Shown piece by piece: positions 11,417-31,142 of a DNA stretch of 64,000 nucleotides. Below the pieces are notes generated by a model that was not told the DNA's origin, searched no databases, and saw only the letters and a list, made by a program, of their open reading frames with translations. The stretch is taken from contig JAGVSJ010000001.1 of assembly GCA_019720975.1 (NCBI GenBank), forward strand, positions 34,400-98,399. Reading direction: 5' to 3'. Source of the DNA: Candidatus Sysuiplasma superficiale (lineage in GTDB: Archaea; Thermoplasmatota; Thermoplasmata; Sysuiplasmatales; Sysuiplasmataceae). Each line of letters starts with the position of its first letter. Within the stretch, counting starts at the first letter, position 1. The position numbers and the translations under genes were made by a program.

Positions 11417-12916
11417 TTAGTCGCTCTTCCTCCTGAGCTGGGGGAAAAGAATCACTTCCTTGATTGAATCTGTGTTGGTGAAAAGCATGCACAGCCTGTC
11501 AATGCCGATTCCGAGACCGCCTGTTGGATGCAGCCCGTATTCCATGGCAACGATATAATCCTCGTCGTACGGATGCGCCTCCTCATCGCCCACTTCCCTC
11601 CTTGCCTTCTGTCTCTCGAAATTCTGTCTCTGCTCCATGGGATTGTTGAGCTCAGAAAATGCGTTGCCAAACTCCATTCCGCAGGCAAATGGTTCGAAGC
11701 GTTCCGCAAACCGCGGATCGCCGCGCTTCTTCTTTGCAAGCGGGCTTATATCCGCGGGGTAGTCGTAAACTATGGTCGGATCGATTATGTTTTCCTGCAC
11801 TTTCTGGTCGAAGAGTTCAGCTATCAGTTCGCCGGCTGACATGTTCTCCGATAGATTCTCGAGCCTGAGTTCACGTGCGACACTCATCAGCTCTGACGCG
11901 TCTGAGAAATCAGCTTCGATTTTCCCTATTTCCCTGATAGCGTCTACCATTGTTATCCTTCTCCAGGGTGGGCTGAAATCTACCTCATGCCTGCCATATG
12001 TCAGTGTGTGACTGCCCTTCACACTGAGAAGGACATCGCTCAGCATTTTTTCCGTCAGCTCCATCATATCGTTGTAGTCTGCGTATGCCTGATAGAGTTC
12101 AAGCATTGTGAATTCGGGGTTATGTGTTGTGTCTATGTCTTCGTTTCTGAAGTCCTTGCCGATCTCGTACACCTTCTCCAAACCGCCGACTATGAGTCTC
12201 TTCAGATACAGCTCGGTCGCAATCCTCAGGTAGAAATCCTGATCAAGAAAATTATAATGTGTTACAAATGGCCTGGCAAGTGCTCCGCCGGGTATAGGCG
12301 TGAGGACCGGTGTTTCCACTTCGATGAAACCCCTGCTGTCCAGCCATCTGCGAATCTCTGAAACGATCCTGCTTCTCGTCACGAATATATTCTGCACCTC
12401 TTCATTTACGGCAAGATCAAGATAACGCATTCTGTATCTTGCCTCCACATCCCGCAGACCATGGAATTTCTCCGGAAGCGGACGCAGCGACTTTGAAAGG
12501 TAGGTAAAGGAGGTCACATAGACTGTAATTTCTCCACGCTTAGTGCGAAATACATTGCCCTCTACGCCCAGTATGTCACCTGCATCGGCATCCCTGAAAA
12601 TTGAGTAGAGAGAGGCGCCGAGAACATCTTCCTTTCCGTAAATCTGGATTGTCCCAAATCTGTCCCGGAGGTTCATGAAGCATGACTTTCCATGATCGCG
12701 GACAGACATTATCCTGCCGGCAATCCTGACCTTGTCCGGTGACGGGTCATGTCCTGCGTCTGCAAATCTTTCCCTGACATCTGCCGAAGTGTGACTCCTC
12801 CTGTATGAATAAGCAAAAGGCTCTATTCCTGCCTCTCTGAGTTTCTGTAGCTTCACGCGCCTGATTTCAACGAGTCTGTTTGTTTCCGATTCGGATCTGC
12901 CCTCTTCTCCAGACAT
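11417..12916 (-). CDS. lysS: Lysine--tRNA ligase, class II
   Basis: OB-fold N-terminus, LPEKFHGL, RYRMRYLDL, FRNEDIDTTHNPEFTMLE, GLGIGIDRL. Confidence 0.96.
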   Translation of the reverse strand: MSGEEGRSESETNRLVEIRRVKLQKLREAGIEPFAYSYRRSHTSADVRERFADAGHDPSPDKVRIAGRIMSVRDHGKSCFMNLRDRFGTIQIYGKEDVLGASLYSIFRDADAGDILGVEGNVFRTKRGEITVYVTSFTYLSKSLRPLPEKFHGLRDVEARYRMRYLDLAVNEEVQNIFVTRSRIVSEIRRWLDSRGFIEVETPVLTPIPGGALARPFVTHYNFLDQDFYLRIATELYLKRLIVGGLEKVYEIGKDFRNEDIDTTHNPEFTMLELYQAYADYNDMMELTEKMLSDVLLSVKGSHTLTYGRHEVDFSPPWRRITMVDAIREIGKIEADFSDASELMSVARELRLENLSENMSAGELIAELFDQKVQENIIDPTIVYDYPADISPLAKKKRGDPRFAERFEPFACGMEFGNAFSELNNPMEQRQNFERQKARREVGDEEAHPYDEDYIVAMEYGLHPTGGLGIGIDRLCMLFTNTDSIKEVILFPQLRRKSD

Positions 12917-13585
12917 GCTTAACACTCATCCGTTACCCTGACAACCATTGTGCCCTGAAAGCGGCCCACCTGCGGGTGCAGCAGCTACCTCAGGTTTCGC
13001 ACATATCAAGATAGGCGCATTATAAGAAAGTTGTTGAAATACAGCTGTGCGGAATTTGCGGGGAAGGTCGCTGCGATCAAATGGATGTCTGCATCCGAAT
13101 CCTCCTTCCAATAGCTCATTTGAAAAAGCTGACCGCATTGATTGCGGTGCCTGTATTTCATGCAGTAGGTGTTGGGCTGTCGGCACTGCAGAAAATGCAA
13201 TCGGTGCTCCTTTCCCAAAATCATATCAGCCGGCAGCAGCGGCAGGCATGCATGTCACCTGCATTTCCCGTGCGTGCTCCATTCTGGTGACGGTGCAGAA
13301 TCGCCTGAAAATGGAAGGCGGGGGTGCAGCAACGCTGAGAGGTGCTGATGCTGTTTCCTGAATCGGCTCTTGAAGGGACAATGAGGACGAAGAGACTTCC
13401 GCATCTTGTCAACTTGAGAAGGGATGAGGCGTCGCCTCCAGCACCCGACACACAGACAACAGAGGACGTGACAGGATGTCACAACAGCGGGCAACCCTCT
13501 CATCATGTCCGGACTGCCCCAATATCTTCATTTCTTCGTTGAGCCGGAAGGTTGAGTGGAGGAGATGCGGAGAGGGATGCAGAAA

Positions 13586-14799: not shown

Positions 14800-15567
14800 T
14801 CATTCAGTCTTCCATTTGGAAAGCCACCATGAAGCCTCCGGCATTCCGCTTGACTCAACAGCCTCCTTGAGTTCCGAGATATCGTAGCCAACCTTCCTGA
14901 AATCAACCGTGAACTCCCCCTTCCTCAACTCCATTATTGCGTATTCAGCTATTACTGGCCTGAAGTGCCTTCCATTTCTCCCCACCCTGTAAGGAAGGCC
15001 GACACTTCCAGGATTGATGAGCGTCATGTGACCGAAGCGACGGAGCATCTGAACGTGTGTGTGGCCTCCGGCACATATGTCGGCGTCACTGGAAGAGAAT
15101 ACCTCACCAAGGAATTCTTCGGAAGATGATGAGTCTATGACCTCAGTGCTGGAACGGGGTGAGCCATGGTAGTAGAGTATGCCGCCTGCCTCCGTATCTT
15201 CCGATATGACAGGGCTGAAGGAAGAGATGAACTTCCTCTCCTGCTCACCGAGGAGGCTTGAACACCAGACATCAACCTTCTCAATCTCCCTGTCCCTGCT
15301 GCTGTTGAACTTCCCGGCTTCAGGCCGCATTATCCTTTCGTCAGTATTTCCCATAACAATGGTGATGTCCCTTGATCTGAGTGTTTTGAGAGTGTAAAGC
15401 GGTGCAGGGCCGGTTGCAGAAACGTCGCCCAGGCACACTGTCCTGTCAGCGCCACTGGACTCTATATCCTCGAGCACTGCATCGAGCGCCACCGGGTTGC
15501 CATGTATGTCTGAAATGAGGGCAATCCTTTCCAGCTCAGCACACCTCCGCCAGCCCAGCGTTACCAT
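14800..15567 (-). CDS. Metallophosphoesterase (calcineurin-like, YfcE/PrpA type)
   Basis: ISDIHGN, CLGD, MGNTD, HGSP, GHTH, NPGSVG; start uncertain. Confidence 0.9.
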   Translation of the reverse strand: MVTLGWRRCAELERIALISDIHGNPVALDAVLEDIESSGADRTVCLGDVSATGPAPLYTLKTLRSRDITIVMGNTDERIMRPEAGKFNSSRDREIEKVDVWCSSLLGEQERKFISSFSPVISEDTEAGGILYYHGSPRSSTEVIDSSSSEEFLGEVFSSSDADICAGGHTHVQMLRRFGHMTLINPGSVGLPYRVGRNGRHFRPVIAEYAIMELRKGEFTVDFRKVGYDISELKEAVESSGMPEASWWLSKWKTE

Positions 15568-15606: not shown

Positions 15607-16761
15607 TCAATCGCCTATCACATCCCCCTCACGGAGTATATCGGCAACCTCGGGTCTCAGTATCTCTGACGGGAGCGGTTTACCTTCCGAAAGCAGCTTC
15701 CTGATCCTGGTCTGACTTGTGCTCTCATGGAATTCATCCCCGTGAGGACAGACCTTTCTTGATGCCATGACTCCGCATTTCCTGCAGAAGAAAGTCTCCC
15801 CGTACCTTAGAGGTACGACGCCGACATCCAGCCTGTCAAATATTCTGTGGGCAGCGTATGGATCGTAAAAACTGCCGACACCTGCCTGATCCCGCCCTAT
15901 GATGTAGTGTGAACATCCATAATTTCTTCTGATTATGGCATAGAAGAGGACTGCCTTCGGCCCGGCATATCTCATTGTGATGGAGAGCGATGCGAGCATC
16001 ACACGTTCGCCAGGGTAATAACTTGATACAAACGCGTTGTATGCCCTCATTATAACATCAGGGCGGTAGTCCCCTTTTTTTAGCCGCCCAATGATCGGCT
16101 GGATGAGCAATGCGTCGACGTCCTCTCTCTCAAGTGTCAGACGCTGTATGTACTCATGTGCCGTGTGGGGCGGATTCCTTGCCTGGTACCCGGCAACACT
16201 GTGCCATCCCATCTTTTCAAAGTGTGCCCGTGTCTCCCGCGGGGTGTATTCGAATCCGCCGTGATCGAGCCTGCGCAAAAGAAGCACCTTCCCGCCGGCG
16301 GCAGTGGTGCTGAGGTTCGCAATGTCTGCCACGTTGGGATGCGATCTGTCGGTCGTTCCGTAGACACTCTTTGCAAGTGCATCCCTTGAATATTCAAACT
16401 TCTCCTCGAGCGTGAATATGGCAAATATCTTGCCTGTGCCGTCCGAGAGAGCAAGGGAATCTGACGGTCTTGCAACACTGATTGTGTGCTCATCCTCCCT
16501 GTTCGAGGGTGCGAGAAATACAGGCAGTGTCCATGGGAGGCCGCCGGGCAGTCTTTCGTTTGACAGCACACTCTCGAACTCTTCCCTGCACATGAAGCCT
16601 TCAAGCGGGCTGTATGCACCGGTGCATATCTTTTCCGCATCATACACCTGGTCTATGAACGGATGAAGGACCGGGAGCTCCTTTGCCTCATCTATAAGCT
16701 TCGCCGCATGAGACTCATCAGCGATCCTTTCAACTAGTTTCCCTCCGTACGGTTCTATCAT
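15607..16761 (-). CDS. sat: Sulfate adenylyltransferase (ATP sulfurylase)
   Basis: GAYSPLEGFM, QARNPPHTAHE, MRYAGP, RRNYGCSHYIIGRDQAGVG, Zn site CxxC..C.H. Confidence 0.96.
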   Translation of the reverse strand: MIEPYGGKLVERIADESHAAKLIDEAKELPVLHPFIDQVYDAEKICTGAYSPLEGFMCREEFESVLSNERLPGGLPWTLPVFLAPSNREDEHTISVARPSDSLALSDGTGKIFAIFTLEEKFEYSRDALAKSVYGTTDRSHPNVADIANLSTTAAGGKVLLLRRLDHGGFEYTPRETRAHFEKMGWHSVAGYQARNPPHTAHEYIQRLTLEREDVDALLIQPIIGRLKKGDYRPDVIMRAYNAFVSSYYPGERVMLASLSITMRYAGPKAVLFYAIIRRNYGCSHYIIGRDQAGVGSFYDPYAAHRIFDRLDVGVVPLRYGETFFCRKCGVMASRKVCPHGDEFHESTSQTRIRKLLSEGKPLPSEILRPEVADILREGDVIGD

Positions 16762-16787
16762 TTACATCTGTCTCCTGTGAAACGGCA

Positions 16788-18635
16788 CTAAGGTATGATG
16801 TGATGGACGGGCCTTGTATACAGTGACCATTCCCTGTTTGCCGGATTGTACCGCGATGACACAAATACATGCCAGTTCTCATCATCAACCTTCGGATAAT
16901 CAGCCCTGTAGTAATATCCTGGCCATCTCGTCTCCTTTCTGTGAAGTGTGTGACGGATGACTGCCTCCGCGACCCATATCCTGTGGTTGAGCTCCCACGC
17001 ACGCTGAAGCTGGTGCAGATCCTCCGCACCAATATGCGCGAAATCCTCCTTAAGCATGTTGAGGAGGCTTAGTCCCTTCATAAGCAGCTTCTCATTTGTC
17101 GCGTAGTATGCACTGACACCGCCGCAGTATTCATCCATTATCTTTTCAAGACGCTGCAGCCCCTGTTTTGGATAGAGGAAGTATGGGGAAACGCTGCCCC
17201 TGACAATCATATGCTTCCCGATATCATAGTTCTCAATGGGTTTGTAAACGCTCTGACGTATCGCCTCAACCATTGCGTCGTCTATATCCGGAACCATGTC
17301 CGGGTTGTCTCTTATGTACCTGACGGCTGCCTTTGCCGCCAGCCTTCCCTCTGTGAATGAACCTGAGGAGAACTTGTGTGCGCTGCCACCGACAGTGTCA
17401 CCGGCACCGAAGAGCCCTTTGACGGTTGTCATCCTGTTGTATCCCCACCTGTAGTCCTCTGGAGCGATGTCCTCCGGCCCGCTCACCCATGCGCCCGCGC
17501 AAACTGCATGTGAACCCATCACATAAGGTTCGGACATGGTGAGTTCGGAGGGGTCTTCCTTCGGGTCGATGTTCTGCGATGCCCACATGACAGCCTGCCC
17601 GACTGTCATGTCCAGGAAATCCTCCCACCCAAGTTCCTCCTTTTCCCTGGTGTCAAGTGAACGTTCTGTATGTATGTATATAGGGCCCTTCCCCGCCTTA
17701 ATCTCCTCAAGCATGAGGTGATTTCTAAGGCATGTGGGCATGGGCTTTGCATCCGCGTATTTCGAGCCTACAAACTCGCGGAGCCTGTCAATATGCGCCT
17801 TTTCATACTCCTCCCCGTATGCGTTTGTGGCCACGGATTTAAGCATGAGGAACCACGCGCCTACGGGGCCGTAACCGTCCTTGAACCTGGTGACAACGAT
17901 CCTGTTCTCCATCTGCACCATTTCTGCTCCGACCTGCATCAGCAACGCATAGGCCGAACCGTTGTTCCACGGCGGATACCATGTCCTTCCGGAACCTTCT
18001 CCTACAGAACGGGGCCTGTAGATGTGAGAGGCCCCTGCAGCTCCAACGATCACTGCCTTTGCCCTGAATATGTAGAATGTGCCGTCACGAACGTTGAAAC
18101 CGGCAGCTCCGGCAATCCTGTTCGGATCCCTCGCATCAGGAAGCAGATGTGTTATCATTACCCTGTTGTAAACCTCATCTACCGATTTCTGTGCCGCCTC
18201 CGCAATTATGGGCTTGTACGACTCTCCGTGTATCATTATCTGCCATCTTCCCTCTCTCTGGTAGTGGCCTGTCTCCTTGTTGTACATCATCGGCAGGCCC
18301 CACTCCTCGAACATGTGGACCGTCGCATCGACATGTCTCGCTACGTCATAGAGGAGGTCCTCGCGGACAAGCCCCATAAGGTCACCCCTGGCATATCGGA
18401 CAAAATCTTCCGGCCTGTTTTCCCCCCACCGCATTCCCATGTAGCAGTTTATAGCGGAAAGGCCGTGTGCAACTGCACCGCTCCTCTCGATGTTCGCCTT
18501 TTCGGCGATCACGATCTTTAGGCCGCGCCCCCAGTAGCCCGCCTCCCATGCGGCGCCACAACCGGCAAAACCGCCGCCAACTATCAGTATGTCACAGTCA
18601 ACCTTTTTCACCGAAGATGTCTTCCTGAACGGCAC
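16788..18635 (-). CDS. aprA: Adenylylsulfate (APS) reductase alpha subunit
   Basis: IVGGGFAGCG, RSGAVAHGLSAINCY, WQIMIHGESYK, RFKDGYGPVGAWF, HKFSSGSFTEGR, ETRWPGYYYRADYP. Confidence 0.97.
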   Translation of the reverse strand: MPFRKTSSVKKVDCDILIVGGGFAGCGAAWEAGYWGRGLKIVIAEKANIERSGAVAHGLSAINCYMGMRWGENRPEDFVRYARGDLMGLVREDLLYDVARHVDATVHMFEEWGLPMMYNKETGHYQREGRWQIMIHGESYKPIIAEAAQKSVDEVYNRVMITHLLPDARDPNRIAGAAGFNVRDGTFYIFRAKAVIVGAAGASHIYRPRSVGEGSGRTWYPPWNNGSAYALLMQVGAEMVQMENRIVVTRFKDGYGPVGAWFLMLKSVATNAYGEEYEKAHIDRLREFVGSKYADAKPMPTCLRNHLMLEEIKAGKGPIYIHTERSLDTREKEELGWEDFLDMTVGQAVMWASQNIDPKEDPSELTMSEPYVMGSHAVCAGAWVSGPEDIAPEDYRWGYNRMTTVKGLFGAGDTVGGSAHKFSSGSFTEGRLAAKAAVRYIRDNPDMVPDIDDAMVEAIRQSVYKPIENYDIGKHMIVRGSVSPYFLYPKQGLQRLEKIMDEYCGGVSAYYATNEKLLMKGLSLLNMLKEDFAHIGAEDLHQLQRAWELNHRIWVAEAVIRHTLHRKETRWPGYYYRADYPKVDDENWHVFVSSRYNPANREWSLYTRPVHHIIP

Positions 18636-18654
18636 CTTGCATCAACTCCGCACT

Positions 18655-19116
18655 TTATTTAATTCCCGAAGGCATTTTCCCTGCATCAGGATGCGGCAGT
18701 TCCGGAACCTTCAGATATTCGGGTTCACCTGAGAGGAGCTGGCTCTGAAGTGCCTTGCCTTCAGGCTCGGGCAATGAACGCGATGATTTAATTGAATCCC
18801 ATTTTGTAGTTCTTATCGGGAAGGTGAATTCCTTGATCCGCCCGTCTCTGTACTTGACCTTCCAGGACACTGCTCCCTTCTCCGGCTCCCTGAGCACGGT
18901 CAGCCCGTGGCCAAGAGGCGCAAAGTCAGCGTATCCTCTGACATCAATTGCATGCTCTGGACAGTACTTCACGCATGTGTAGCATTCCCAGCACATTTCA
19001 GGTTCGACGTTGTATGCACGCCGGAACTCAGGGTCTATGTGCATTATGTCACTCGGGCAGAGCTCCACACACTTGCCACATCCGTCACACATCGTCATGT
19101 AAACAAAGGTCGGCAT
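18655..19116 (-). CDS. aprB: APS reductase beta subunit (2x[4Fe-4S])
   Basis: MPTFVYMT.CDGCG.C...CPSDIMHID...RRAYN.EP.MCWECY.CVK.CP; RGYADFAPLGH. Confidence 0.97.
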   Translation of the reverse strand: MPTFVYMTMCDGCGKCVELCPSDIMHIDPEFRRAYNVEPEMCWECYTCVKYCPEHAIDVRGYADFAPLGHGLTVLREPEKGAVSWKVKYRDGRIKEFTFPIRTTKWDSIKSSRSLPEPEGKALQSQLLSGEPEYLKVPELPHPDAGKMPSGIK

Positions 19117-19128
19117 TCACTAACCTCC

Positions 19129-19923
19129 TCAATCCTCTTTTATATAACTGACAGTGGAAGGCGATGGAAGATGGGAGTATCCCTCAGCGGCATCCATCTC
19201 CCTGTGTATGGCATAAACAGGCTTGTAAATGATGTGGGGAAATTTCGACCAGGCCATGGAAAGGAAGGGGAATGCAGTCACAGGCAGATACAGAATCAGT
19301 GCTGCTTCAGTGGCGGTGACAGACCCACTCAGATCCGCCAGTTCCAGAATGAACTGGAATACCACGGCGAACATGATCGAGAAGAGGAACATGTCTGCCC
19401 TGATCGAACGGAAAATGGAATCCCTTTCGGAACGCACATTGACCCTCATAAAGAGCATTATTATTCCTCCCACAAGCAGCATGCCGTCACCGGTGTTTGT
19501 CCCGACTTCAAGCGGATTGGACAGAGGAGAGGCGTTGAGCGTCGGATAGACAAGGGCCCGGAGAAGCATTGAGAGCGCCGCAATGATGAGTCCCCAGAAA
19601 AGAAGAAGATGTGCCACGCGGCGTGTCCTGTCAAGACTCCTGTCCTTGCACGAAGCTATTTCGCCGGAGAATGCAATATTCCTGATCAGGACGCGGAAAA
19701 TCACCGATCCCCCGGACTCGCCCGAAGGTTTGCTCCTTCCATAGCTTCTCTTCCACTCCCTCTCCTGCTGGTAAGACACTATCTTCTTCCTTCCCACAGC
19801 GTCGTACAGCACGCCGAGTACAGCTCCAAGCACGAGTATGAGTACAAAGAGTCTGAAGTCCGTTGCCGAAAAAAACGGGTTTATGTCAACAGCAGCCATC
19901 TTTTGAACCCTCACCAGCATCAT
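19129..19923 (-). CDS. aprM: APS reductase membrane anchor AprM
   Basis: Five TM segments; INPF N-terminus, SGE..C..RRVAHLL..WG, RVNV..E..S.FR..RAD.F, WSKF.H..YKP, E.G..LP.P, as recalled for AprM; directly upstream of aprB. Confidence 0.85.
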   Translation of the reverse strand: MMLVRVQKMAAVDINPFFSATDFRLFVLILVLGAVLGVLYDAVGRKKIVSYQQEREWKRSYGRSKPSGESGGSVIFRVLIRNIAFSGEIASCKDRSLDRTRRVAHLLLFWGLIIAALSMLLRALVYPTLNASPLSNPLEVGTNTGDGMLLVGGIIMLFMRVNVRSERDSIFRSIRADMFLFSIMFAVVFQFILELADLSGSVTATEAALILYLPVTAFPFLSMAWSKFPHIIYKPVYAIHREMDAAEGYSHLPSPSTVSYIKED

Positions 19924-19965
19924 TCATACTTTACTTATACTTATTCAATAAAACACCCCATAATC

Positions 19966-19976
19966 TGACATTGTCC
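19966..19976. promoter_or_regulatory. Candidate operator TGACATTGTCC (10/11 match to palindrome TGACAWTGTCA) in the aprM/lrp divergent promoter
   Basis: Near-identical motifs at 21961 and 22415 in the other sulfur-cluster promoters. Confidence 0.5.
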
Positions 19977-20144
19977 TGAAAACTGTAACGCTATTCACTC
20001 AATTAAAGGTTTCAGACTTAAAATCGTGGCTCTGAAGGCCTGCACACGGCATTCGTATGATGACTGCAGAGGTGCTAAGCATGCCAAATTTCAGACAAAT
20101 GATTAATACAGGATAAGGGTAACCGGGTTTAGAGAAATATTCAC

Positions 20145-20642
20145 ATGAGAAGAGGTAAAGTGAAGGCGGACAGCGGAATCGGGCTAGATTTGCTGGATGT
20201 GAACATCATCAGGGAACTGCAGGCGGATGCCCGCATATCATACCGTGCCCTCGCCAGAAAACTTGGCGTGAGCGTAACAACCGTGAGCGGAAGGGTCAGG
20301 AGAATGAAGGATACAGGCCTAATAAGGAGCTTCACGATCATTGTAAACCCTGAGAAGGCAGGGAACGTTTACTGCACAGCACTCTACATCAGGACAGAAA
20401 ACGGTTCGGACCCGAGAAAGGTTGGCGAGGCTGTATCAGGGATAAAGGGGATATGCTACACTTACCACACACTGGGAATATACAACCTGATTGCACTTGG
20501 CAGCGCCCCAAACAAGGATGACTTTTCCTCAATGATAAGGCAGATAAATGGGCTCAAGGGAGTCAAGGAGGTAATACCGTCTGTCGTCCTCGATACAATC
20601 AAGGAGGATCCCAAGCACATAATAGCACTCGCAGGCAGATAA
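20145..20642 (+). CDS. Lrp/AsnC family transcriptional regulator
   Basis: LDLLDVNIIRELQADARISYRALARKLGVSVTTVSGRVRRM HTH plus C-terminal RAM domain; divergent from aprM. Confidence 0.93.
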   Translation: MRRGKVKADSGIGLDLLDVNIIRELQADARISYRALARKLGVSVTTVSGRVRRMKDTGLIRSFTIIVNPEKAGNVYCTALYIRTENGSDPRKVGEAVSGIKGICYTYHTLGIYNLIALGSAPNKDDFSSMIRQINGLKGVKEVIPSVVLDTIKEDPKHIIALAGR

Positions 20643-21461: not shown

Positions 21462-21902
21462 TTAGATGAAAAGCGTTATTGCGGAAGGATCTGACGCCCA
21501 CTGAAGGAACGTCGCTGCGCCTACGACATCGGAATTAGGGAGTACGAGGTTCTCCTTTGTCGTTCCGAACAGTTTCATGGTAGGTGAACAGGCGTTGATG
21601 TGAACGCCAGAATCAGCGGCCATCTGGAGCATCTGCTGAACGGTGGGCATGCCGCCCTTTGAGATGAGCCCCTGGAGCTGCTCAGCCGTTAGACCGAGAT
21701 CCTTTGAAGGTTGAATCGTTTCGGCCTGACCTTTTGTAAGCAACTTCATTCCGCCAAATGTGAAATACATGTACACTTCCATTCCCTGCGCCGCTGCAGT
21801 TGTTGCCAGTATAAGCGCCGGATATGCCGCGTCTGTCGTCCCCTTGCTCACAACAAGAACAAGCTTATTCTTCATCTGCGTCTGCTGTTCACTACTCTGC
21901 AT
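21462..21902 (-). CDS. DsrE-family sulfurtransferase (DsrE2/DsrE3-like)
   Basis: AYPALILATTAAAQGMEVYMYFTFGG, conserved INACSPTM cysteine, VVGAATFL; divergent from tusA. Confidence 0.88.
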   Translation of the reverse strand: MQSSEQQTQMKNKLVLVVSKGTTDAAYPALILATTAAAQGMEVYMYFTFGGMKLLTKGQAETIQPSKDLGLTAEQLQGLISKGGMPTVQQMLQMAADSGVHINACSPTMKLFGTTKENLVLPNSDVVGAATFLQWASDPSAITLFI

Positions 21903-22035: not shown

Positions 22036-22269
22036 ATGTCAGATGAAGCAAAGGTATTTGACTTCAGGGGGCTGCAGTGCCCTCTGCCTGTTTTCGAAAC
22101 GAGCAAGGCGATAAAACAGATTGGTGTTGGAGAGGAGATAGTTGTCATGGCAAACGACCCTGCAGCCAGACCTGATCTGGAGGCATGGTCCAAACGCACG
22201 GGCCACCCAATACTGAATGTTGAGGACAAGGGCGACCACATCAAACTGACAATAAGGCGCTCACACTGA
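22036..22269 (+). CDS. tusA: Sulfur carrier TusA
   Basis: DFRGLQCPLP (CPxP), DPAARPDLEAW; 77 aa. Confidence 0.93.
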   Translation: MSDEAKVFDFRGLQCPLPVFETSKAIKQIGVGEEIVVMANDPAARPDLEAWSKRTGHPILNVEDKGDHIKLTIRRSH

Positions 22270-22414
22270 TTAAAGGCCATACTGTAGCGGGTTTCGGCGA
22301 ACGTAAGATTCTGTGGCGGTTTACGGGGGTGGGTGGGCAGGCATTTTTCGCAATGTGCCGAATAAGCAGCAAAACTATAATTAATAAATTGTCCATTAAG
22401 ATGTTTTAAATGAC

Positions 22415-22425
22415 TAACATTGTCA
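22415..22425. promoter_or_regulatory. Candidate operator TAACATTGTCA upstream of sHdrC1
   Basis: 10/11 match to TGACAWTGTCA, just downstream of TATA-like TTTTAAA. Confidence 0.5.
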
Positions 22426-22477
22426 GGAATTCACTTGGATTTTTCAAACGAGAGGAGGATGTTCTGCCCTGTCGATA

Positions 22478-23245
22478 ATGAAGAACCTTCCAAACAGGAA
22501 GGAAACTGATGAACCTTCAATGATACTTGCCGGAGCGAGGAAGGATGGGGACAGCACTGAACTCGCAGCCAGAATATTTTCACAGATGCGTTCGGACTTC
22601 AGGTACAGTGAATTCGTGCTTGGATGCCTGAACTGCGGCGAATGCACCACAGGCTGCCCTGCAGCCCGTTTCTATGATTTCAGCCCGCGGGAGATGCTCC
22701 AGATAGCCATGTCCGATGACCCACAGGTTCTTCTCGATGCGATGCAGGAGAAGATATGGGCCTGCTGCCAGTGCTATACCTGCAACATGCGCTGCAGGTT
22801 CGGTAATGACATCGCCGGCATCATAAGCGTGATGAGGGAACTCGCGGTAAAGAACGGTCTTGAGAGCACAAAGGAAGTTCTGAAGCCGGCAAGCAGAAGT
22901 CTCCTGAAGGTTATGACTCATGGAACGCAGGTCTCTCCTGACATGATCCAGCCTGATTTCTTCGTTGACTGGGATCCCAAGGCTGTATCCAAATCCTCCG
23001 ATCTCGCTGCACTGAGAAAGGCGATTCCTATTGATGTTCTTCAGGTAACAGACTCATCCTGGGAGGTTTCGATGCAAACAGCGCTCGAACTCGCTCAGAT
23101 ATATGAGGAGTCGGGTGTCCTCGACATGCTCAGGGCGCTGGATCCGGACCTTGTCGAGATGATACTTGACATAATTTCTGACTGGAAGGATGAGTTTGAG
23201 GATATGAAGGAGAAGTATGGCATTGAAGGAGATGCTCCAAGATGA
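22478..23245 (+). CDS. hdrC1: Sulfur-oxidizing heterodisulfide reductase-like subunit sHdrC1
   Basis: CLNCGECTTGCPAARFYDFSPRE and CCQCYTCNMRC ferredoxin motifs; first gene of the sHdr operon. Confidence 0.9.
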   Translation: MKNLPNRKETDEPSMILAGARKDGDSTELAARIFSQMRSDFRYSEFVLGCLNCGECTTGCPAARFYDFSPREMLQIAMSDDPQVLLDAMQEKIWACCQCYTCNMRCRFGNDIAGIISVMRELAVKNGLESTKEVLKPASRSLLKVMTHGTQVSPDMIQPDFFVDWDPKAVSKSSDLAALRKAIPIDVLQVTDSSWEVSMQTALELAQIYEESGVLDMLRALDPDLVEMILDIISDWKDEFEDMKEKYGIEGDAPR

Positions 23246-24510
23246 CAATGTTGAGTGCTGACCAGATAAGGAACGTAGTGAAGGCGAGGGCAGAACACAG
23301 AACGGTATCAGACAAGAAGGTTTCCGACGTCAGGGAAGAAATGTGGAAACTGCATGACAAGGGAGAACTCATCGTAATACCGATCACAGCCAGAAACAAG
23401 CCAGTGAAGGTGGAAACACTGTTCGGTTGGGAGAAGAGAATACCCACTGATCACCTATGGCATCACAAATCATGCGGTCAGTGCGGAAACATACCAGGCT
23501 ATCCGGCATCTCTACTCTGGTTCATGAATCAGTTTGAGACAAGTTATCTTAACGAACCGCACCAGACTTCATGCACGGCGTGGAACTATCACGGTACCGG
23601 TACATCGAACCCAGTTGCGCTCGCGGCTGTCGCAGTCAGAAACTGGTACCGGGCATACGAGACAGGTACCTTCCCTCTCATCCATTGCGGAACAAGCTAC
23701 GGTGACTACAAGGAAATGAGAAAGCTTCTGATTGAGAATGCTGAAATCAGGAATAAGGTAAGGGAGATAATGCACCACATGGGAAAGGAGCTTGTCATAC
23801 CCGAAGAGATTGTGCATTACAGCGAGTGGGTGCATGTCATGCGGGACAGGATAGCTTCAATGTCGAAGCATGATCTCTCAGAGATAACAGCCACTGTCCA
23901 TGAACCGTGCCACTACTACAAAATGGTCCCTGAGGATGCAATATACGACATGAATGTCAACGGCGGGCAGAGGCCAGCACCCCCCACCGCACTAATGCTC
24001 GCACTTGGCGCAAAGGTAGCCGATTACAGCACATGGTATGACTGCTGCGGCTTCGGCTTCAGGCACATACTCACCGAAAGGGAATTCACAAGATCTTTTG
24101 CAACCCTCCGAAAGATAAAGCCGATGGTCGAGGAGGCACATTCGGATGTCGCGATAACAACAGACACAGGATGTGTCACAACGCTTGACAAGAGCCAGTG
24201 GATCGGAAAGGTGCACGGCATGGATTTTATGGTGCCTGTGCTTGCGGACGTGCAGATAGCCGCACTGGCTGCCGGTGCCCATCCGTACAAGATAGTTCAG
24301 GTGCACTGGCACGCATCGCCAACGGAGAAGCTGATGGAAAAGATGGGCATTGACTACGGGAAGTACAGAGAGGATTTCATGTCATACCTTCAGGAGATAA
24401 AGAACGGCGGGAAGGTGGAGTACCTGTATGAACCGCACAGGGAAATGGAGAAGTATTTTGCAGTGAACAAAGGACAGGTAATTCCTGAAGTTGATTCAAA
24501 GACGGGGTAG
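23242..24510 (+). CDS. hdrB1: sHdrB1 (CCG-domain subunit)
   Basis: WHHKSCGQCGNIPGY, QTSCTAWNYHG, HCGTSYG, CHYYK, DCCGFGFRH, DTGCVTTLDKSQW. Confidence 0.93.
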   Translation: MTMLSADQIRNVVKARAEHRTVSDKKVSDVREEMWKLHDKGELIVIPITARNKPVKVETLFGWEKRIPTDHLWHHKSCGQCGNIPGYPASLLWFMNQFETSYLNEPHQTSCTAWNYHGTGTSNPVALAAVAVRNWYRAYETGTFPLIHCGTSYGDYKEMRKLLIENAEIRNKVREIMHHMGKELVIPEEIVHYSEWVHVMRDRIASMSKHDLSEITATVHEPCHYYKMVPEDAIYDMNVNGGQRPAPPTALMLALGAKVADYSTWYDCCGFGFRHILTEREFTRSFATLRKIKPMVEEAHSDVAITTDTGCVTTLDKSQWIGKVHGMDFMVPVLADVQIAALAAGAHPYKIVQVHWHASPTEKLMEKMGIDYGKYREDFMSYLQEIKNGGKVEYLYEPHREMEKYFAVNKGQVIPEVDSKTG

Positions 24511-24520
24511 GTGGTGGATG

Positions 24521-25585
24521 ATGGGCAAGCAGCGCTTTCTCGTCATAGGCGGGGGACCCGCCGGCCTCAGTGCCGCGCTGGATCTGCATGACGCAGGCAT
24601 GGATGTGGAACTTGTTGAGAAGGAGTCTTTCCTCGGCGGAACACCAAAGAAGCTGCATTACAGCCTCATAGCACCAGATCTCAAGCCAGTTGAGGAGGTG
24701 CTTGACCCTCTGATAAAGAAGGTGGAGGGTGCAGGGATAAGCAGGAAGCTCAATACAACTGTTTCCTCAGCAACCATAAGGGACGGTGTTGTCACTGTGA
24801 AATACGCATCTTCCGACGGCAAACAGGCTGGTGGCGGTGATTTCGATGCAGTAATACTTGCAACAGGATTCACGCACTGGGACCCGCACAAGAAGTATGA
24901 GTACGGTTATGGGCTCTACCCCGATGTCATCGACTTCAAGGATTTTGAAGCGATGCTGTCATCGGACAGGCTCGAAAGGCCATCCGACGGGAAGATGCCG
25001 AAGAGGATTGGCTGGCTGCTCTGCGTGGGCTCGAGGGACAGGCAGGTGGGAAAATTCTACTGCTGCAGGCTTGGCTGTGCTGTATCGATAAAACAGGCAA
25101 TGGAAGTGAAGAAAAGACACCCTGAGATTGACACCTATGTCTACTACATGGACATAAGAACCTATGGTTTCTGGGAGGACCAGCTGTACTGGAAATCGAT
25201 GGAGGAATACAACGTCAAATTCATTAGGGGGAGGATAGGCGCAATAAGCAGAGGTGAGAACGGTAGCCTGATCGCCATGGCCGAGGACACGATACTGCAG
25301 AGGCCAAGCGAAGTTCCGTTTGACATGCTCATCCTGACCACGGGAATGGAGGCGAGCAGCGGAACGGTGGAGATGGCAAAACTGTTCGGTGTGGATATTG
25401 AGGAGCATGGCTTTGTAAAGCCGCTTCAGGCAGACAGCATGCCCGTGCACACCAATGTGGACAGTGTATTTGTTGCCGGCACAGCCACCGGACCCAAGGC
25501 AATTCCGGATGCAATAACCGAGGGTTCGGCAGCTGCAATGAAGGCAATGAATTTTGTGAGAAGGAAGGTGCCACTGGTTGCCTGA
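24521..25585 (+). CDS. hdrA: sHdrA flavoprotein subunit (short type)
   Basis: VIGGGPAG, LATGF, CVGSRDRQVG..YCCR.GC, YYMDIRT.G, GPKAIPDAI; start ATG 24518 or 24521. Confidence 0.93.
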   Translation: MGKQRFLVIGGGPAGLSAALDLHDAGMDVELVEKESFLGGTPKKLHYSLIAPDLKPVEEVLDPLIKKVEGAGISRKLNTTVSSATIRDGVVTVKYASSDGKQAGGGDFDAVILATGFTHWDPHKKYEYGYGLYPDVIDFKDFEAMLSSDRLERPSDGKMPKRIGWLLCVGSRDRQVGKFYCCRLGCAVSIKQAMEVKKRHPEIDTYVYYMDIRTYGFWEDQLYWKSMEEYNVKFIRGRIGAISRGENGSLIAMAEDTILQRPSEVPFDMLILTTGMEASSGTVEMAKLFGVDIEEHGFVKPLQADSMPVHTNVDSVFVAGTATGPKAIPDAITEGSAAAMKAMNFVRRKVPLVA

Positions 25586-26288
25586 GATCATGCTCAACAG
25601 CTACAGGATAAGGGATATCGCGGATGCTGTTCTTGGCAGGAACTGGGAGGAAGAATTGCAGCAGTATCTTACAATGCTTGAGAGAAAGGGAGTGATTATA
25701 AGGGAGATAGTGGAGGCTGAGGAAAGGGAGAGAACAGATTACGAATCATTCATCTCACTCTTCTTTCCTGCAAGGAGATACAGAAGGGAGATACTCTCAT
25801 CAAACAAACCGGAAGTGCTCGATGACGCGATATCTTCGCTGCGCAACTGCGCGGAAACACCTGCCCTGACCGAGCTGAAATTCGCACAAATGTCCGGAGC
25901 TCCGGCCGCTGTTTTGCGCGACATGGCATACGAGGGAATGCACTTCATGTTTCCGGAAAGATACTGTCTTGCAACAAGATGGGTCTGGAATCCGGAAAGA
26001 GGGACAGGAGCGCTGCGGGATGTGATCAGAGCTGAAAAAAGGGACATGAGCTTTGAGGAAAGGCAGAAGGTGCTCAGGAACATACTCTCATCCATAAAGG
26101 TTCATGGTTACGTGTTCAGAGACTCCTTTCCACTGGATCTCATGTGTGCGCTGTACTACTCCCAGGAAGTAATAGGTGCGAAGGACCACTCAATGAACGC
26201 AGGCGGCATGGAGGCGCTCTTTCCCAGCCATGGCGCTGTTTCCGTGATGATACTGGGTCTGAGAGGTTTGAAATATGCCAATCCATGA
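25578..26288 (+). CDS. sHdrH (conserved hypothetical between hdrA and hdrC2)
   Basis: Position in hdrC1B1A-hyp-C2B2; HFMFPERYCLATRWVWNP..GTGAL motif. Confidence 0.8.
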   Translation: MPEIMLNSYRIRDIADAVLGRNWEEELQQYLTMLERKGVIIREIVEAEERERTDYESFISLFFPARRYRREILSSNKPEVLDDAISSLRNCAETPALTELKFAQMSGAPAAVLRDMAYEGMHFMFPERYCLATRWVWNPERGTGALRDVIRAEKRDMSFEERQKVLRNILSSIKVHGYVFRDSFPLDLMCALYYSQEVIGAKDHSMNAGGMEALFPSHGAVSVMILGLRGLKYANP

Positions 26289-26982
26289 AAAGAACCTGAT
26301 TGAAGAGGACAGGATACTAGAAAAGGAAAAGGCTGAGCTTGAGGGCAGGGACGTATCAGGCCAGTGGAATACATTCATAGAACAGCGCATTCTCTCCGAG
26401 TACGAGCCTGAGATATTTCAGGAGATATACTCAAGGCCTGAAGGTCGGACGATAAACAGGTGCTGGCAGTGCGGCACCTGCACTTCAGGATGCTGCATGC
26501 ACACGGATTTCGGGCTGAGGGAGTTCAATCCGAGATACTTCATCTACCTTGCACGGATCGGTGACGAAGAAGAACTGAAAAAACAGAAGGATGTCATATG
26601 GCGCTGTCTGGCGTGCAATAAATGTGTTGAGCGCTGTCCGAAGGATGTGAGGGTTGAAGAGGTTGTCCATGCCATAGACTCCTACATGAGAAAGAAGGGG
26701 TGGGCTCCTGACAACCCTGCCAGCAGATGGGATGATGAATACCTCAGGAATGTCATGAAGTCAGGGATACTGGATGAGATATCCCTCCTGCGCAATTACA
26801 TCAGGGACGAGAAGATAGAGGAATTTGATACGCACTACATGATGAAGATGGCTGTAAAGCTGCTGAAGACCGGAAGGATGAGGACAGGGCCCGTAAGACA
26901 CAGGACGAAGGGCTGGAAGAGGATAAGGAAGGTTGCTGAAGAAATACTGGAGAAGGATGGTTATGAACTCACAAAAGGATGA
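26275..26982 (+). CDS. hdrC2: sHdrC2
   Basis: MPIHEK start, RCWQCGTCTSGC, WRCLACNKCVERCPKDV. Confidence 0.92.
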   Translation: MPIHEKNLIEEDRILEKEKAELEGRDVSGQWNTFIEQRILSEYEPEIFQEIYSRPEGRTINRCWQCGTCTSGCCMHTDFGLREFNPRYFIYLARIGDEEELKKQKDVIWRCLACNKCVERCPKDVRVEEVVHAIDSYMRKKGWAPDNPASRWDDEYLRNVMKSGILDEISLLRNYIRDEKIEEFDTHYMMKMAVKLLKTGRMRTGPVRHRTKGWKRIRKVAEEILEKDGYELTKG

Positions 26983-27874
26983 ACTGGCATTCTATCCCGG
27001 CTGTTCCCTCGACGGAATGGGGAAGGCATACAGGAAGACGTCGGAGCTGGTGAACCGCGACCTCGGGATTGAGATGAGGGAGATAGTGAATTACAACTGC
27101 TGCGGCGCGGCGGAGGTGAAGACCGCAAGCTACGACCTTTCAGTTTTCCTGCCCGGCAGGAATCTTGCGCTCGCAAAGCAGATGGGATCAAGTGCTGTGG
27201 TTGCACCCTGCAACGGCTGTGTCTTCTCGCTCGGCAGGGCGAACCGCGCGATAGCGGAGGATTCAGGGACGCGGGAGAGGATCAATTCATATCTGAACCG
27301 TGCGGGAGCTCCCTCGTATGAAGGGGATGTCGAGGTGAAACACATAATAGAGGTCATTTACGAGAGGGCGGGAATTGAAGGCGTGAAGAAGAAGGTAAGG
27401 CGCCCGCTTACCGGCATACATGTGGCCTGCTATTATGGCTGTCTGTACACCAGGCCGAAGATCTATACAGGTGCGGGGACAGGCAGGAAGGATAACCCGG
27501 AACACCCGCACTTCATGGATGATCTGATGTCCGCGATAGGCGCAGAAGTGGTGGACTTTCCGCTCAAGACTGTCTGCTGCGGCGGAGGGCATGCAATAGC
27601 AGACAGGGAGGTGTCCGTGGGGTTCAGCGCTGCAATACTGAATGAGGCGGCAAGGGCGGGGGCCGATTTTGTTGTGACAATGTGCCCGCTCGGGCACATG
27701 AACATAGAGGCGAACATTCCTGCGATAGTGAAGCAGTACGGAATGGAGGTCGTGAGGCCTGTGGTCTACTTTACGCAGCTGATGGCGCTCGCTTTCGGTC
27801 ACAGCAGGAGGGAGGCGAGGCTTTCCGACAATTTCTCCGAAGCGGGAAAAGTTTTACAGGAGAAGGGATTCTAG
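26963..27874 (+). CDS. hdrB2: sHdrB2
   Basis: FYPGCSL, NCCGA, APCNGC, YYGCLY.RP, KTVCCGG, CPLGH; start re-assigned to ATG 26963. Confidence 0.92.
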   Translation: MNSQKDELAFYPGCSLDGMGKAYRKTSELVNRDLGIEMREIVNYNCCGAAEVKTASYDLSVFLPGRNLALAKQMGSSAVVAPCNGCVFSLGRANRAIAEDSGTRERINSYLNRAGAPSYEGDVEVKHIIEVIYERAGIEGVKKKVRRPLTGIHVACYYGCLYTRPKIYTGAGTGRKDNPEHPHFMDDLMSAIGAEVVDFPLKTVCCGGGHAIADREVSVGFSAAILNEAARAGADFVVTMCPLGHMNIEANIPAIVKQYGMEVVRPVVYFTQLMALAFGHSRREARLSDNFSEAGKVLQEKGF

Positions 27875-27886
27875 TATGGTGATTGT

Positions 27887-28336
27887 ATGGCATTCATAAA
27901 CGGGTGCGAACTGCCGGATGATCTGTTCTACTTTGTTGAGGGGAATCAGATGTCCTGGGTGAGGTTCGAAGGGAATGAGGCGGTCATTGGTCTGACAGAT
28001 CCTGCACAGACCAGAGCGGGGAAGATTGTGGTGATAAGGGTAAAGGGAGAGGGAACTACCAGACCGAAGGGAAAACCACTTGCCACCATTGAAAGCGGAA
28101 AGTGGGCCGGCGCCGTTATATCGCCTCTCACAGGAACGGTTGTAAGGGCAAATGAACAGCTGGCATCCAGTCCCGAACTGATAAACAACGATCCGTACGG
28201 ACAGGGCTGGATTGTGCGCATTAGTGTCGCGAATCAGGAGGAAAAGGCGGCCCTGCTGAATGGCGAGAAGGCGATGGAGAAATACAGGGAACTTATTGCG
28301 AAGGACAACATACGATGCATGAGATGCAAGCAGTGA
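27887..28336 (+). CDS. lbpA: Lipoate-binding protein LbpA (GcvH-like)
   Basis: IESGKW lipoyl-lysine motif, INNDPYGQGW, N-terminal GCELP and C-terminal CMRC cysteines typical of LbpA. Confidence 0.9.
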   Translation: MAFINGCELPDDLFYFVEGNQMSWVRFEGNEAVIGLTDPAQTRAGKIVVIRVKGEGTTRPKGKPLATIESGKWAGAVISPLTGTVVRANEQLASSPELINNDPYGQGWIVRISVANQEEKAALLNGEKAMEKYRELIAKDNIRCMRCKQ

Positions 28337-28337
28337 G

Positions 28338-28724
28338 GTGATGTGTCTGGCGGATGTTGAAGGCAAAAAACTTCTGATAGTGATGACAACAGGGCCGGAG
28401 GATCCGGAGAAGACGTATGCGCCGTTCTATACAGCCGCGCTTTCGGCTGCGATGGAGGTTGACACTTCAATGTACTTCCTCATGCACGCCCCCAAACTTC
28501 TCAAAAACGGTTCAGCGGAGCAGGTGAAACTCAAGAAAGGGGGAACGCTCAAGCAGTTCATAAACATGGCTCTCGAGGGAGGGGTCAAATTCTACGCATG
28601 CGAGGAGAGCCTGAGGAGCCTCTGTGAAATTGACCCCGCTGATGTTATCGAAGGTGTGAAGATAGTGGGCTCATCGACACTGGCGGATCTCGCCCTTGAA
28701 GCTGATTCGGTACTGAGCTTCTGA
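28338..28724 (+). CDS. DsrE-family protein
   Basis: MTTGPEDP...APFY.A..AAM, FYACEESL conserved cysteine, ADSVLSF. Confidence 0.85.
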   Translation: MMCLADVEGKKLLIVMTTGPEDPEKTYAPFYTAALSAAMEVDTSMYFLMHAPKLLKNGSAEQVKLKKGGTLKQFINMALEGGVKFYACEESLRSLCEIDPADVIEGVKIVGSSTLADLALEADSVLSF

Positions 28725-28731
28725 GGTTTGC

Positions 28732-29853
28732 ATGGAGGAGCTTGGCGTCATCAGGCTCGGGGCAGTGGACGGCTACACGATGACCAATGCATTCGCCGTG
28801 TTGGCCGGTTCAGTAAGTGAGGGGGAGAGGGGTGACACACTTGTTGTCTGTCATTCCGAGAAACCTTTCGCCAATGTTGGCTTCCACCAGGAGGCTCTGG
28901 AGGAGATTGATATAGACTACTGCACAAGGAATTCCATTCCAGTTGTCAGGAGACTGATAGGCGGAGGAGCGATTGCTGACGGGCCCTGGGAGGAGGATTA
29001 TTTCTTCATAACATCCCTGGATTCACCGGTGACCTCCGGCACAATCGGTGACTATTACGGCAGGATGCTCGAACCCGTGGCTGCAGTGCTCGGCAGATTT
29101 GGCGTGTATGCCTCCAGGCAGGGATTGAATGACCTTGCAGTGAATGGGAGAAAGATAAGCGCCAACGGGGCCGTTGACATTGAAGGCGCAAGGGTTCTCA
29201 CGGGGGACATACTGCTTGACCTCGACATCAACATCATGGCGGGCATACTGAAGGTGCCGGATGCCAAATTCAGGGACAAGATGGCTGCATCCATGAGCGA
29301 GCACCTGACGTCAATGCGCATCGAACTGGGGAGGGAGATAAAGAGGGAGGATGTCGCAGAATCATTGATCGAGGCTTTCGGAAGGGGATACAGCAGAGTT
29401 CAGGAAACATCACTTTCAGACTACGAAAAGAAGAGACTGAAAGGTCTTATAGACGAACACAGCAAACCGGAATGGGTTTTTTCAAGGGACAGCGTACGCA
29501 GCGAACTGATGTCGGACAGGCGCGTCGTAAAGATCAAGGAGGATACGTTCCTCTGCCAGGCTGATTACAAGGCACAGAAGCTCATCAGGGTGACAATGCT
29601 TGCGGAGGACGGGAGGATTGCGAACATCATCATATCAGGTGACTTCTTCACTGTGCCGGTGAGCTGGTCCGTTGGAAGGATTGAGAATGCACTTGCGGGG
29701 ACGGAGCTGACACAGAGTGCAATCATCGCGAAGATCACGAAGGTTCTGTCAGAGGAGCATGTAACTGTTCTGGGCGCATCGCCTGAGGACTTCACACGCG
29801 CAATACTCGAGGCGGCAAAACATCCTGCCATCAGGAGGGGCGGGGGCACTTGA
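28732..29853 (+). CDS. Lipoate:protein ligase (LplA-like with C-terminal accessory domain)
   Basis: NVGFHQ...EID, VVRRLIGGGA, NDL.VNGRKISANGA, C-terminal ISGDFF domain. Confidence 0.9.
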   Translation: MEELGVIRLGAVDGYTMTNAFAVLAGSVSEGERGDTLVVCHSEKPFANVGFHQEALEEIDIDYCTRNSIPVVRRLIGGGAIADGPWEEDYFFITSLDSPVTSGTIGDYYGRMLEPVAAVLGRFGVYASRQGLNDLAVNGRKISANGAVDIEGARVLTGDILLDLDINIMAGILKVPDAKFRDKMAASMSEHLTSMRIELGREIKREDVAESLIEAFGRGYSRVQETSLSDYEKKRLKGLIDEHSKPEWVFSRDSVRSELMSDRRVVKIKEDTFLCQADYKAQKLIRVTMLAEDGRIANIIISGDFFTVPVSWSVGRIENALAGTELTQSAIIAKITKVLSEEHVTVLGASPEDFTRAILEAAKHPAIRRGGGT

Positions 29854-30944: not shown

Positions 30945-31139
30945 TTGAGGGTCAGGGTAATCTCAAGGATCGGCGATCCGTTCCTTTCTCCGCATGCGCC
31001 CTCTGCGGACATTGGCAGGGAGCATATGGAGGTGCTCAACAGTCTCTTCTTTGACGGTAGCGTGGACATCGGCGGCGTGGTCGAGATTGACGGCACGAGA
31101 TATGTGTGCACTGCCTCCGGCTGGGTAAGGGAGGTGTAA
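30945..31139 (+). CDS. Small hypothetical protein (64 aa)
   Basis: Fills the gap exactly between mrp and the dsrE-like gene; ends with a GGAGGTG RBS for the next gene. Confidence 0.6.
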   Translation: MRVRVISRIGDPFLSPHAPSADIGREHMEVLNSLFFDGSVDIGGVVEIDGTRYVCTASGWVREV

Positions 31140-31142
31140 CCG

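Follow-up and report, generated by a model that had tools for sequence, protein, structure and literature searches.

The subject of this report is a compact operon in a 64,000-nucleotide stretch of the Candidatus Sysuiplasma superficiale genome (contig JAGVSJ010000001.1; the window), which encodes an adenosine 5'-phosphosulfate (APS) reductase, its membrane anchor AprM and an ATP sulfurylase. Four tightly packed open reading frames (ORFs) on the minus strand, with gaps of 12, 19 and 26 nt, code in order for AprM (19129..19923; 264 aa with five transmembrane helices, the membrane anchor of APS reductase, related to the membrane domain of QmoC and NarI), AprB (18655..19116; 153 aa, the beta subunit, bearing two [4Fe-4S] motifs and the indels of lineage I), AprA (16788..18635; 615 aa, the alpha or FAD subunit) and Sat (15607..16761; 384 aa, an archaeal/Thermus-type ATP sulfurylase that has a Cys3-His pattern). 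An earlier sequence-only reading of the stretch had delineated the same four ORFs and quoted AprB and Sat motifs, all of which are present. The host is a metagenome-assembled genome (MAG) of 2.06 Mb in 100 contigs, 95.17% complete with 5.62% contamination; it is archaeal, given that a partial archaeal small-subunit ribosomal RNA is matched at 460.8 bits. The closest named homologues are labelled Candidatus Thermoplasmatota archaeon or Methanomassiliicoccales archaeon.

AprB scores 177.9 bits on TIGR02060 (cut-off 135.65) and AprA 972.2 bits on TIGR02061 (cut-off 641.75). AprA also aligns with the Archaeoglobus fulgidus enzyme (2FJA, 743.8 bits), such that its L59, N63, W219, R250 and H376 correspond to Leu-A70, Asn-A74, Trp-A234, Arg-A265 and His-A398, residues whose catalytic roles are given in PMC2211403 (here and below, statements from papers cited by PMC identifier pertain to the available portions of those texts). 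The cysteines of AprB lie at 10, 13, 16, 20, 42, 45, 48 and 52, and its electron-transfer tryptophan is Trp43. Comparison of 73 AprB sequences from the fetched loci, 11 with aprM upstream (of which that of L004 is N-terminally truncated) and 62 without it, revealed two indels that track the anchor. A 2-residue insertion, seen in the window as the nine-residue span EPEKGAVSW at 77, occurs in 11/11 AprM-linked AprBs and 0/62 of the others, and we read it as the loop between elements 8 and 9 of PMC2211403. The spacing between Cys13 and Cys16 is 2 residues only in the 11 AprM-linked AprBs and in those of two AprM-less Thermoplasmata loci (L054 and L057); in 60 of the 62 AprBs without AprM it is 7-8 residues, the window AprB thus being without the elongated charged loop. 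Meyer and Kuever (2008, PMC2211403) associated both indels with lineage I and with the use of Qmo or of AprM. In a 90-row AprA tree the window sequence falls in a 27-row AprM-linked clade with a long stem (100 by the Shimodaira-Hasegawa-like approximate likelihood ratio test, SH-aLRT), and its grouping with sequences of Thiobacillus, Sulfuriferula and Pelomicrobium is supported at 100/100 in a careful 40-row tree; identity to proteobacterial lineage-I AprA is 70-73%. The lineage-I pattern and oxidiser affinity previously read into AprBA are thereby borne out.

The membrane protein is barely visible to the standard domain libraries. Its sole Pfam match is a sub-threshold one to Cation_ATPase_C (20.6 bits), which we take as chance helix similarity, and a sequence search of solved structures returned 0 matches at E <= 1. 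In NCBIfam it matches qmoC (NF038018, E 2.9e-13, 50 bits against a cut-off of 300), with residues 73-236 aligned to positions 196-356 of the 360-position profile, i.e. its membrane half, and TcuB (E 6.5e-6). A word-based search recovered 11 close homologues, all annotated as hypothetical, ten of which, exclusively archaeal, were aligned to build a profile (A1). Against 1.84 billion representatives this profile matched 165 proteins at E <= 0.001. Five of its ten best matches are named, all of them archaeal (Thermoprotei, two from Nitrososphaerota, Marsarchaeota and Conexivisphaerales), and lower matches include Thiobacillus and Casimicrobiaceae clusters with members that NCBI calls 'adenylyl-sulfate reductase'. 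In a test set of 80 named loci around AprA homologues, A1 detects an ORF of ~250 aa immediately 5' of aprB in seven proteobacterial loci (L003-L008 and L012; E 1e-30 to 1e-46) and the AprM of three archaeal loci (L017, L023 and L066; E 1e-19 to 4e-48). It matches 15 QmoC ORFs (~370-450 aa, ~3.5 kb downstream of aprA) weakly, with E 3e-12 to 3e-4, and covers them from position ~80 onward, as against ~6 to ~255 of its 257 positions in AprM. Sequence identity of the window protein to proteobacterial AprM is 23-33%. In a quick tree of 35 AprM rows rooted on 10 QmoC membrane domains, AprM is monophyletic with respect to QmoC (100 SH-aLRT). These comparisons identify the five-helix protein preceding aprB as an orthologue of AprM and not as QmoC, as had been surmised from its sequence, and the locus belongs to the AprM-linked lineage I clade by its AprA, its AprB and its AprM alike.

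Sat scores 405.9 bits on NF003166 (cut-off 387) and contains both the PUA-like domain (PF14306, 125.2 bits) and the ATP-sulfurylase domain (PF01747, 268.8 bits), along with the motifs QARNPPH at 193, GRDQAG at 289 and C-x2-C-x8-C-x-H at 326; in the Allochromatium paper (PMC3779200) three cysteines and one histidine constitute a zinc motif. Its closest solved relatives are the enzymes of Thermus (1V47, 301.1 bits) and Methanothermococcus (8A8D, 296.5 bits), with the Allochromatium Sat structure reported in PMC3779200 (4DNX) at 166.2 bits. In a careful 45-row tree the window Sat belongs to a clade of 15 rows, all archaeal (100/99), with Thermoplasmata at its base, and the Sats beside proteobacterial aprMBA (L006 and L007) form a separate bacterial clade together with lineage-II oxidiser Sats. 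The sequence-only reading was therefore right in that sat lies behind aprA and that its product is unlike the Sat of proteobacterial oxidisers. Its accompanying statement that the usual order in those bacteria is sat-aprMBA holds for Allochromatium (PMC3779200); in the seven proteobacterial loci sat is divergent upstream in two and not within the flank covered in five. No common ORF of 60-200 aa was found within 150 nt past the aprA stop across these seven and the three archaeal loci. Apr-linked Sats of Thermoprotei, Nitrososphaerota and Conexivisphaerales nest within the archaeal clade with its basal Thermoplasmata (the tree is midpoint-rooted), which hints that the aprMBA-sat cassette moved from Thermoplasmatota to these groups.

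Starting ~2 kb from the apr operon is a complete sulfur-oxidation gene cluster with the type-I order shdrC1B1AHC2B2 together with LbpA and sulfur carriers (22036-31828, +), whose sHdr subunits were typed by gene order and family matches, the order being compared with PMC11094781. It opens with the sulfur carrier TusA (22036..22269), followed by sHdr C1 (22478-23245), B1 (23242-24510) and A (24491-25585), the hypothetical protein of the cluster assigned by gene order (25578-26288), C2 (26275-26982) and B2 (26933-27874); thereafter come, by family match, the GcvH-like LbpA (27887-28336), a DsrE-like protein (28338-28724), an LplA-like lipoate-protein ligase (28732-29853) and Mrp/ApbC (29850-30944). 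Two small ORFs close the cluster, one matching no family (31143-31487) and one with a faint TusC-like match far under cut-off (31484-31828; E 2.1e-6). A DsrE2-like sulfur carrier, assigned by family match, lies between the two gene sets (21462..21902, -). According to the available text of PMC11094781, type I sHdr is found among Archaea only in Thermoproteota, with type II in Thermoplasmatota; the type-I arrangement of the window belongs to a genome with Thermoplasmatota as its closest named relatives.

Elsewhere in the genome, searches found neither dsrA nor any sulfite reductase of the NIR_SIR family. Full-length qmoC was likewise not found, the best match being AprM itself (49.5 bits); qmoA and qmoB were not searched separately. 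The genome does encode CydA, subunit I of cytochrome bd (354.5 bits). Given that the sulfite-producing sHdr-LbpA system adjoins the operon and that there is no sulfite sink other than Apr, an oxidative direction of the pathway would be the economical reading. Accordingly, we consider it quite probable that the operon constitutes the cytoplasmic sulfite-to-sulfate branch of a sulfur-oxidising archaeon, with electrons passing via AprM to quinone. In the mechanism we propose, the sHdr-LbpA system with its TusA and DsrE carriers would produce sulfite, which AprBA would join to AMP to form APS; the two electrons released would run through the iron-sulfur clusters of AprB to AprM, which would deliver them to the quinone pool for reoxidation by the cytochrome bd oxidase, and Sat would turn APS and pyrophosphate into sulfate and ATP.

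One alternative is a reductive cassette, in which sulfate, once activated by Sat, would be taken as APS to sulfite by AprMBA at the expense of quinol, serving either assimilation or respiration. Several observations count in its favour and hence tell against an oxidative role: Apr and Sat can work in both directions; two genes downstream, the window has a cystathionine gamma-synthase/lyase gene; and one of the archaeal loci, L066 ('archaeon Maxine3'), carries cysC, coding for an APS kinase (PF01583, 176.4 bits; L066:10206-10868), directly behind sat, suggesting that in some hosts the cassette can feed assimilatory routes or those dependent on 3'-phosphoadenosine 5'-phosphosulfate (PAPS). Also weighing against the proposed mechanism, no heme-copper oxidase was found in the genome, so that respiration would rest on cytochrome bd alone; all genome-wide absences pertain to a MAG that is 95% complete with 5.62% contamination; and the structural likeness of AprM to NarI and EtfD, detailed below, is modest, Z scores of 8.9-9.8 being common for helical bundles. 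The presence of the assimilatory Methanothermococcus enzyme (8A8D) among the closest solved relatives of Sat also suits a reductive role. Nevertheless, without dsrA or a NIR_SIR reductase in the 95%-complete genome sulfite would have no reductive sink, the operon adjoins a cluster that would produce sulfite, and the AprBA/AprM clade is the one linked to sulfur oxidisers (PMC2211403); we therefore regard a reductive cassette as improbable.

The aprMBA-sat operon is not peculiar to this genome. The order aprM-aprB-aprA-sat recurs in the three other archaeal loci, of which L023 is titled Thaumarchaeota and the other two only 'archaeon'; their Sats match that of the window at 491-532 bits, as against at most 259 for every other locus. 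L017 has the sHdr genes, LbpA, DsrE, ligase, Mrp, aprMBA, sat and a metallophosphoesterase in collinear arrangement along a single strand. The AprM of L066 is the most divergent of all, and the Thaumarchaeota MAG behind L023 contains a second AprM-like gene apart from aprBA (L110, G414:C1:54853-55515, E 7.5e-26). Within the order to which the window belongs (10 species genomes in 3 genera), AprA is over its cut-off and AprM present in 10/10 genomes; sHdrA is found at E <= 1e-60 in 8/10, and in six it lies within ~5-7 kb of aprM on the same contig. Beyond the order, among 400 evenly sampled further genomes of the phylum, none has AprM at E <= 1e-10 and 10 have AprA, all of the window's class; nor is there an AprM-like gene at E <= 0.001 in the whole genomes behind L054 and L057. 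In the single Thermoproteales genome covered, the top AprM match reached 18.9 bits.

A careful AprA tree of 40 rows, rooted on sulfate-reducer and lineage-II rows, places the Thermoproteales locus L028 outermost, as sister to the remaining ingroup (97/97). At the next split L054 and L057 (100/100) are sister to all AprM-linked rows (100/100), and the latter form one clade (93/99), within which the archaea (78/87) oppose a group of the row P0023 and the Proteobacteria (94/92; Proteobacteria alone 100/99). The AprM tree shows the same clades, and this agreement indicates that aprM and aprA travelled together; when it is rooted on QmoC, the archaeal L066/P0144 branch diverges before the proteobacterial and archaeal core clades separate. 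In approximately unbiased (AU) tests, whose groups were named after the tree was seen, a single clade of 15 archaeal AprA rows including Thermoproteales L028 was rejected (p 7e-35), and a single clade of the 14 lineage-I archaeal rows was not rejected (p 0.105), so that a nesting of the Proteobacteria inside the lineage-I archaea is not demonstrated.

The sequence-only reading had left the origin of the operon between a mosaic assembled by horizontal transfer and a deep archaeal branch of AprM. In its recent form the mosaic would consist of a proteobacterial aprMBA joined to a resident archaeal sat, and would account both for the 70-73% identity of AprA to its proteobacterial lineage-I counterparts in the company of an archaeal-type Sat and for the absence of AprM from all 400 other sampled genomes of the phylum. 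However, AprM is merely 23-33% identical to its proteobacterial counterparts, the AprA and the AprM tree each part the archaeal from the proteobacterial sequences as two sister clades, the order aprMBA-sat recurs in three other archaeal loci, AprA and AprM occur in all 10 genomes of the order across its 3 genera, and the GC content of the operon (0.52-0.53) lies inside the window range of 0.47-0.54. Conservation across the order, congruent trees, recurring gene order and ordinary GC together speak for long residence and not for a recent mosaic, which we deem quite improbable; of the two options an inherited archaeal branch fits better. As the archaeal and proteobacterial AprM-linked clades are sisters whose successive AprA outgroups are archaeal, namely the AprM-less Thermoplasmata and then the Thermoproteales, the topology favours, without establishing, an archaeal origin. 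A fuller scenario, in which lineage-I APS reductase arose in Archaea, passed once to the Proteobacteria and spread there, with each domain using its own Sat, is offered tentatively and is somewhat more likely to be wrong than right.

The AlphaFold2 model of AprM (mean predicted local distance difference test score 75) contains five long hydrophobic helices (20-44, 95-125, 137-159, 174-199 and 202-226; mean hydropathy 0.99-1.78). By counts of lysine and arginine, loop 1 (11 such residues), loop 3 and the C-terminus (4 apiece) are assigned to the inside, and the remaining three segments, which have none, to the outside. NarI has the same five-helix topology, with its N-terminus out and its C-terminus in. 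When 37 AprM and 10 QmoC sequences are aligned, QmoC is seen to keep four histidines in 10/10 sequences, at the positions equivalent to 86, 105, 212 and 230 of the window protein. His105 and His230 are kept in 37/37 AprM and 10/10 QmoC sequences. At the other two positions the window protein has Ser86 and Tyr212, and among the AprMs histidine occurs at position 86 in 0/37, with position 212 occupied by Tyr in 27, His in 5 and Phe in 4. That the window protein could be an independently truncated QmoC or a TcuB-like protein merely resembling AprM, as its only library matches (qmoC NF038018 and TcuB) and the Pfam family PF27541 'CitB' on some AprM homologues might invite one to think, is very improbable, since like AprM it is without two of the four QmoC histidines, matches AprM from end to end, N-terminal helix and loop included, with scores far above those of QmoC, and belongs to the single AprM clade of the quick tree. 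On our reading, AprM and the QmoC/NarI membrane domain derive from a common stock.

The topology from positive charges would place His105, early in helix 2, and His230, just past helix 5, near the cytoplasmic face. Thus, we propose that AprM binds a single heme b there, ligated by His105 and His230 and proximal to AprB, which would dock on this face, and that this heme would be the counterpart of the proximal site of NarI. The best VIA matches of the AprM model are EtfD (9OJN, Z 9.8), superoxide oxidase (Z 9.6) and NarI (1Q16 chain C, Z 8.9); Foldseek returned EtfD and NarI at E 0.015-0.4 and nothing at E <= 0.001. These matches are consistent with the proposed heme without deciding the matter. 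A prediction of the AprB-AprM complex (score 0.01, mark 0.32) counts neither for nor against binding.

The start of aprM is probably Met9 at 19899, giving a protein of 256 aa, because its homologues start there. An A/T-rich, TATA-like stretch lies ~30-45 nt ahead of this ATG on the minus strand (within 19925-20000), and fits a short-leader transcript beginning near Met9 and not at the first ATG. Scans for sigma-70 promoters (6 against 4.6) and terminators (5 against 4.3) were at the level of shuffled sequence, and neither applies to archaea. An Lrp/AsnC-type regulator (20145..20642, +) is divergent from aprM across a 221-nt spacer. A YfcE-like metallophosphoesterase (14800..15567, -) begins 39 nt past sat and is a possible fifth gene of the operon; such a gene is also found behind sat in L017 (L017:10041-10736), and the enzyme might act on a nucleotide or on pyrophosphate. 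One metatranscriptome library covers 19236-19676 in aprM with two contigs of depth 2-4 and 99-100% identity (380 nt with 4 differences and 91 nt with none), a weak hint that aprM is transcribed, given that DNA carry-over is possible; over aprB, aprA and sat, RNA-library contigs yield just short conserved pieces from other organisms, from which an absence of transcription does not follow. Metagenomes labelled mine tailings or mine drainage contain the stretch almost entire, and at least half of its words are present in 5 rows (X8-X12) from 5 studies, besides 7 flagged as possible sources. Elsewhere in the window are genes for a hydrogenase-4/Mrp-like membrane complex (131-5773, +) with HyfF-like (447 bits) and HyfB-like (388 bits) subunits and a NuoD-like subunit that scores far under cut-off, a class-II lysyl-tRNA synthetase (11417-12925, -; 679 bits) and a bacterial-type phosphoenolpyruvate carboxylase (32180-34843, +; 775 bits on NF000584), the last two in what is an archaeal genome.

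The description of Ca. Sysuiplasmatales reportedly mentions the oxidation of reduced sulfur in its abstract, and aprAB and sat may already be listed there. In the available parts of PMC10504309, PMC2211403, PMC3779200 and PMC3333476, AprM figures as a feature of sulfur-oxidising bacteria, and the Allochromatium paper (Parey et al. 2013, PMC3779200) gives it as having no similarity to known domains. Our literature search, which did not extend to supplementary gene-survey tables, found no description of an archaeal AprM. The present analysis delineates a conserved AprM branch in Archaea, spanning MAGs labelled Thermoplasmatota or Methanomassiliicoccales, Thermoprotei, Marsarchaeota, Nitrososphaerota and Conexivisphaerales. 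As its members are all annotated as hypothetical, surveys that score only AprBA and Qmo would mis-assign these organisms. The tie of AprM to the QmoC/NarI membrane stock with a single histidine pair furnishes a testable cofactor hypothesis, and the shape of the trees opens the origin of lineage-I Apr to testing. Furthermore, the gene content sketches, for an acid-mine archaeon, a path from sulfite to sulfate downstream of sHdr, which is relevant to acid generation.

In comparison with known systems, the locus most resembles the sat-aprMBA operon of Allochromatium and the lineage-I Proteobacteria: aprM directly precedes aprBA in one operon (PMC2211403, PMC3779200), AprM has five transmembrane helices, AprB is without the Qmo-type loop and has the beta-sheet insertion, and the proposed role is sulfite oxidation with delivery of electrons to the membrane. 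Unlike the Allochromatium operon, as far as the available text describes it, that of the window resides in an archaeal host, has sat behind aprA instead of before aprM, encodes a Cys3-His Sat from an archaeal clade (166 bits to 4DNX) and adjoins sHdr, not rDsr. With QmoABC of sulfate reducers and lineage-II oxidisers it shares the AprM core (~73-236), which is homologous to the membrane domain of QmoC and has in common with it one histidine pair, R101, G111, R160 and K227; yet AprM, at 264 aa as against ~360-400 aa, is without the iron-sulfur (HdrC-like) domain and two of the four conserved histidines. Relative to the NarI/EtfD membrane domain, AprM differs in having only one candidate bis-histidine site. 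Sat is akin to the zinc-binding enzyme of Thermus thermophilus (1V47) and the ATP sulfurylase of Methanothermococcus thermolithotrophicus (8A8D) in being short, free of an APS-kinase domain and furnished with three cysteines and one histidine; unlike those enzymes, which are assimilatory or of unclear role, it is encoded in an apr operon. The AprM-less Thermoplasmata loci L054 and L057 fall with the window in one AprA super-clade (100/100); their AprBs have the short Cys13-Cys16 spacing as well, but not the 2-residue insertion. In L057 (L057:3867-13043) aprBA is flanked by an ORF resembling electron-transfer flavoprotein (ETF) alpha/beta, an ETF-QO-like flavoprotein, Mrp/NUBPL and a DsrE-like gene, a setting that looks like type-II sHdr and suggests ETF instead of AprM as the electron outlet of AprBA. 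When AprA, AprB, AprM and Sat were compared separately and the membrane protein was checked against QmoC, neither did this protein group with QmoC nor AprBA with the reductive lineages; the archaeal aprMBA is a conserved extension of a known bacterial system, and one that bears on the origin of that system.

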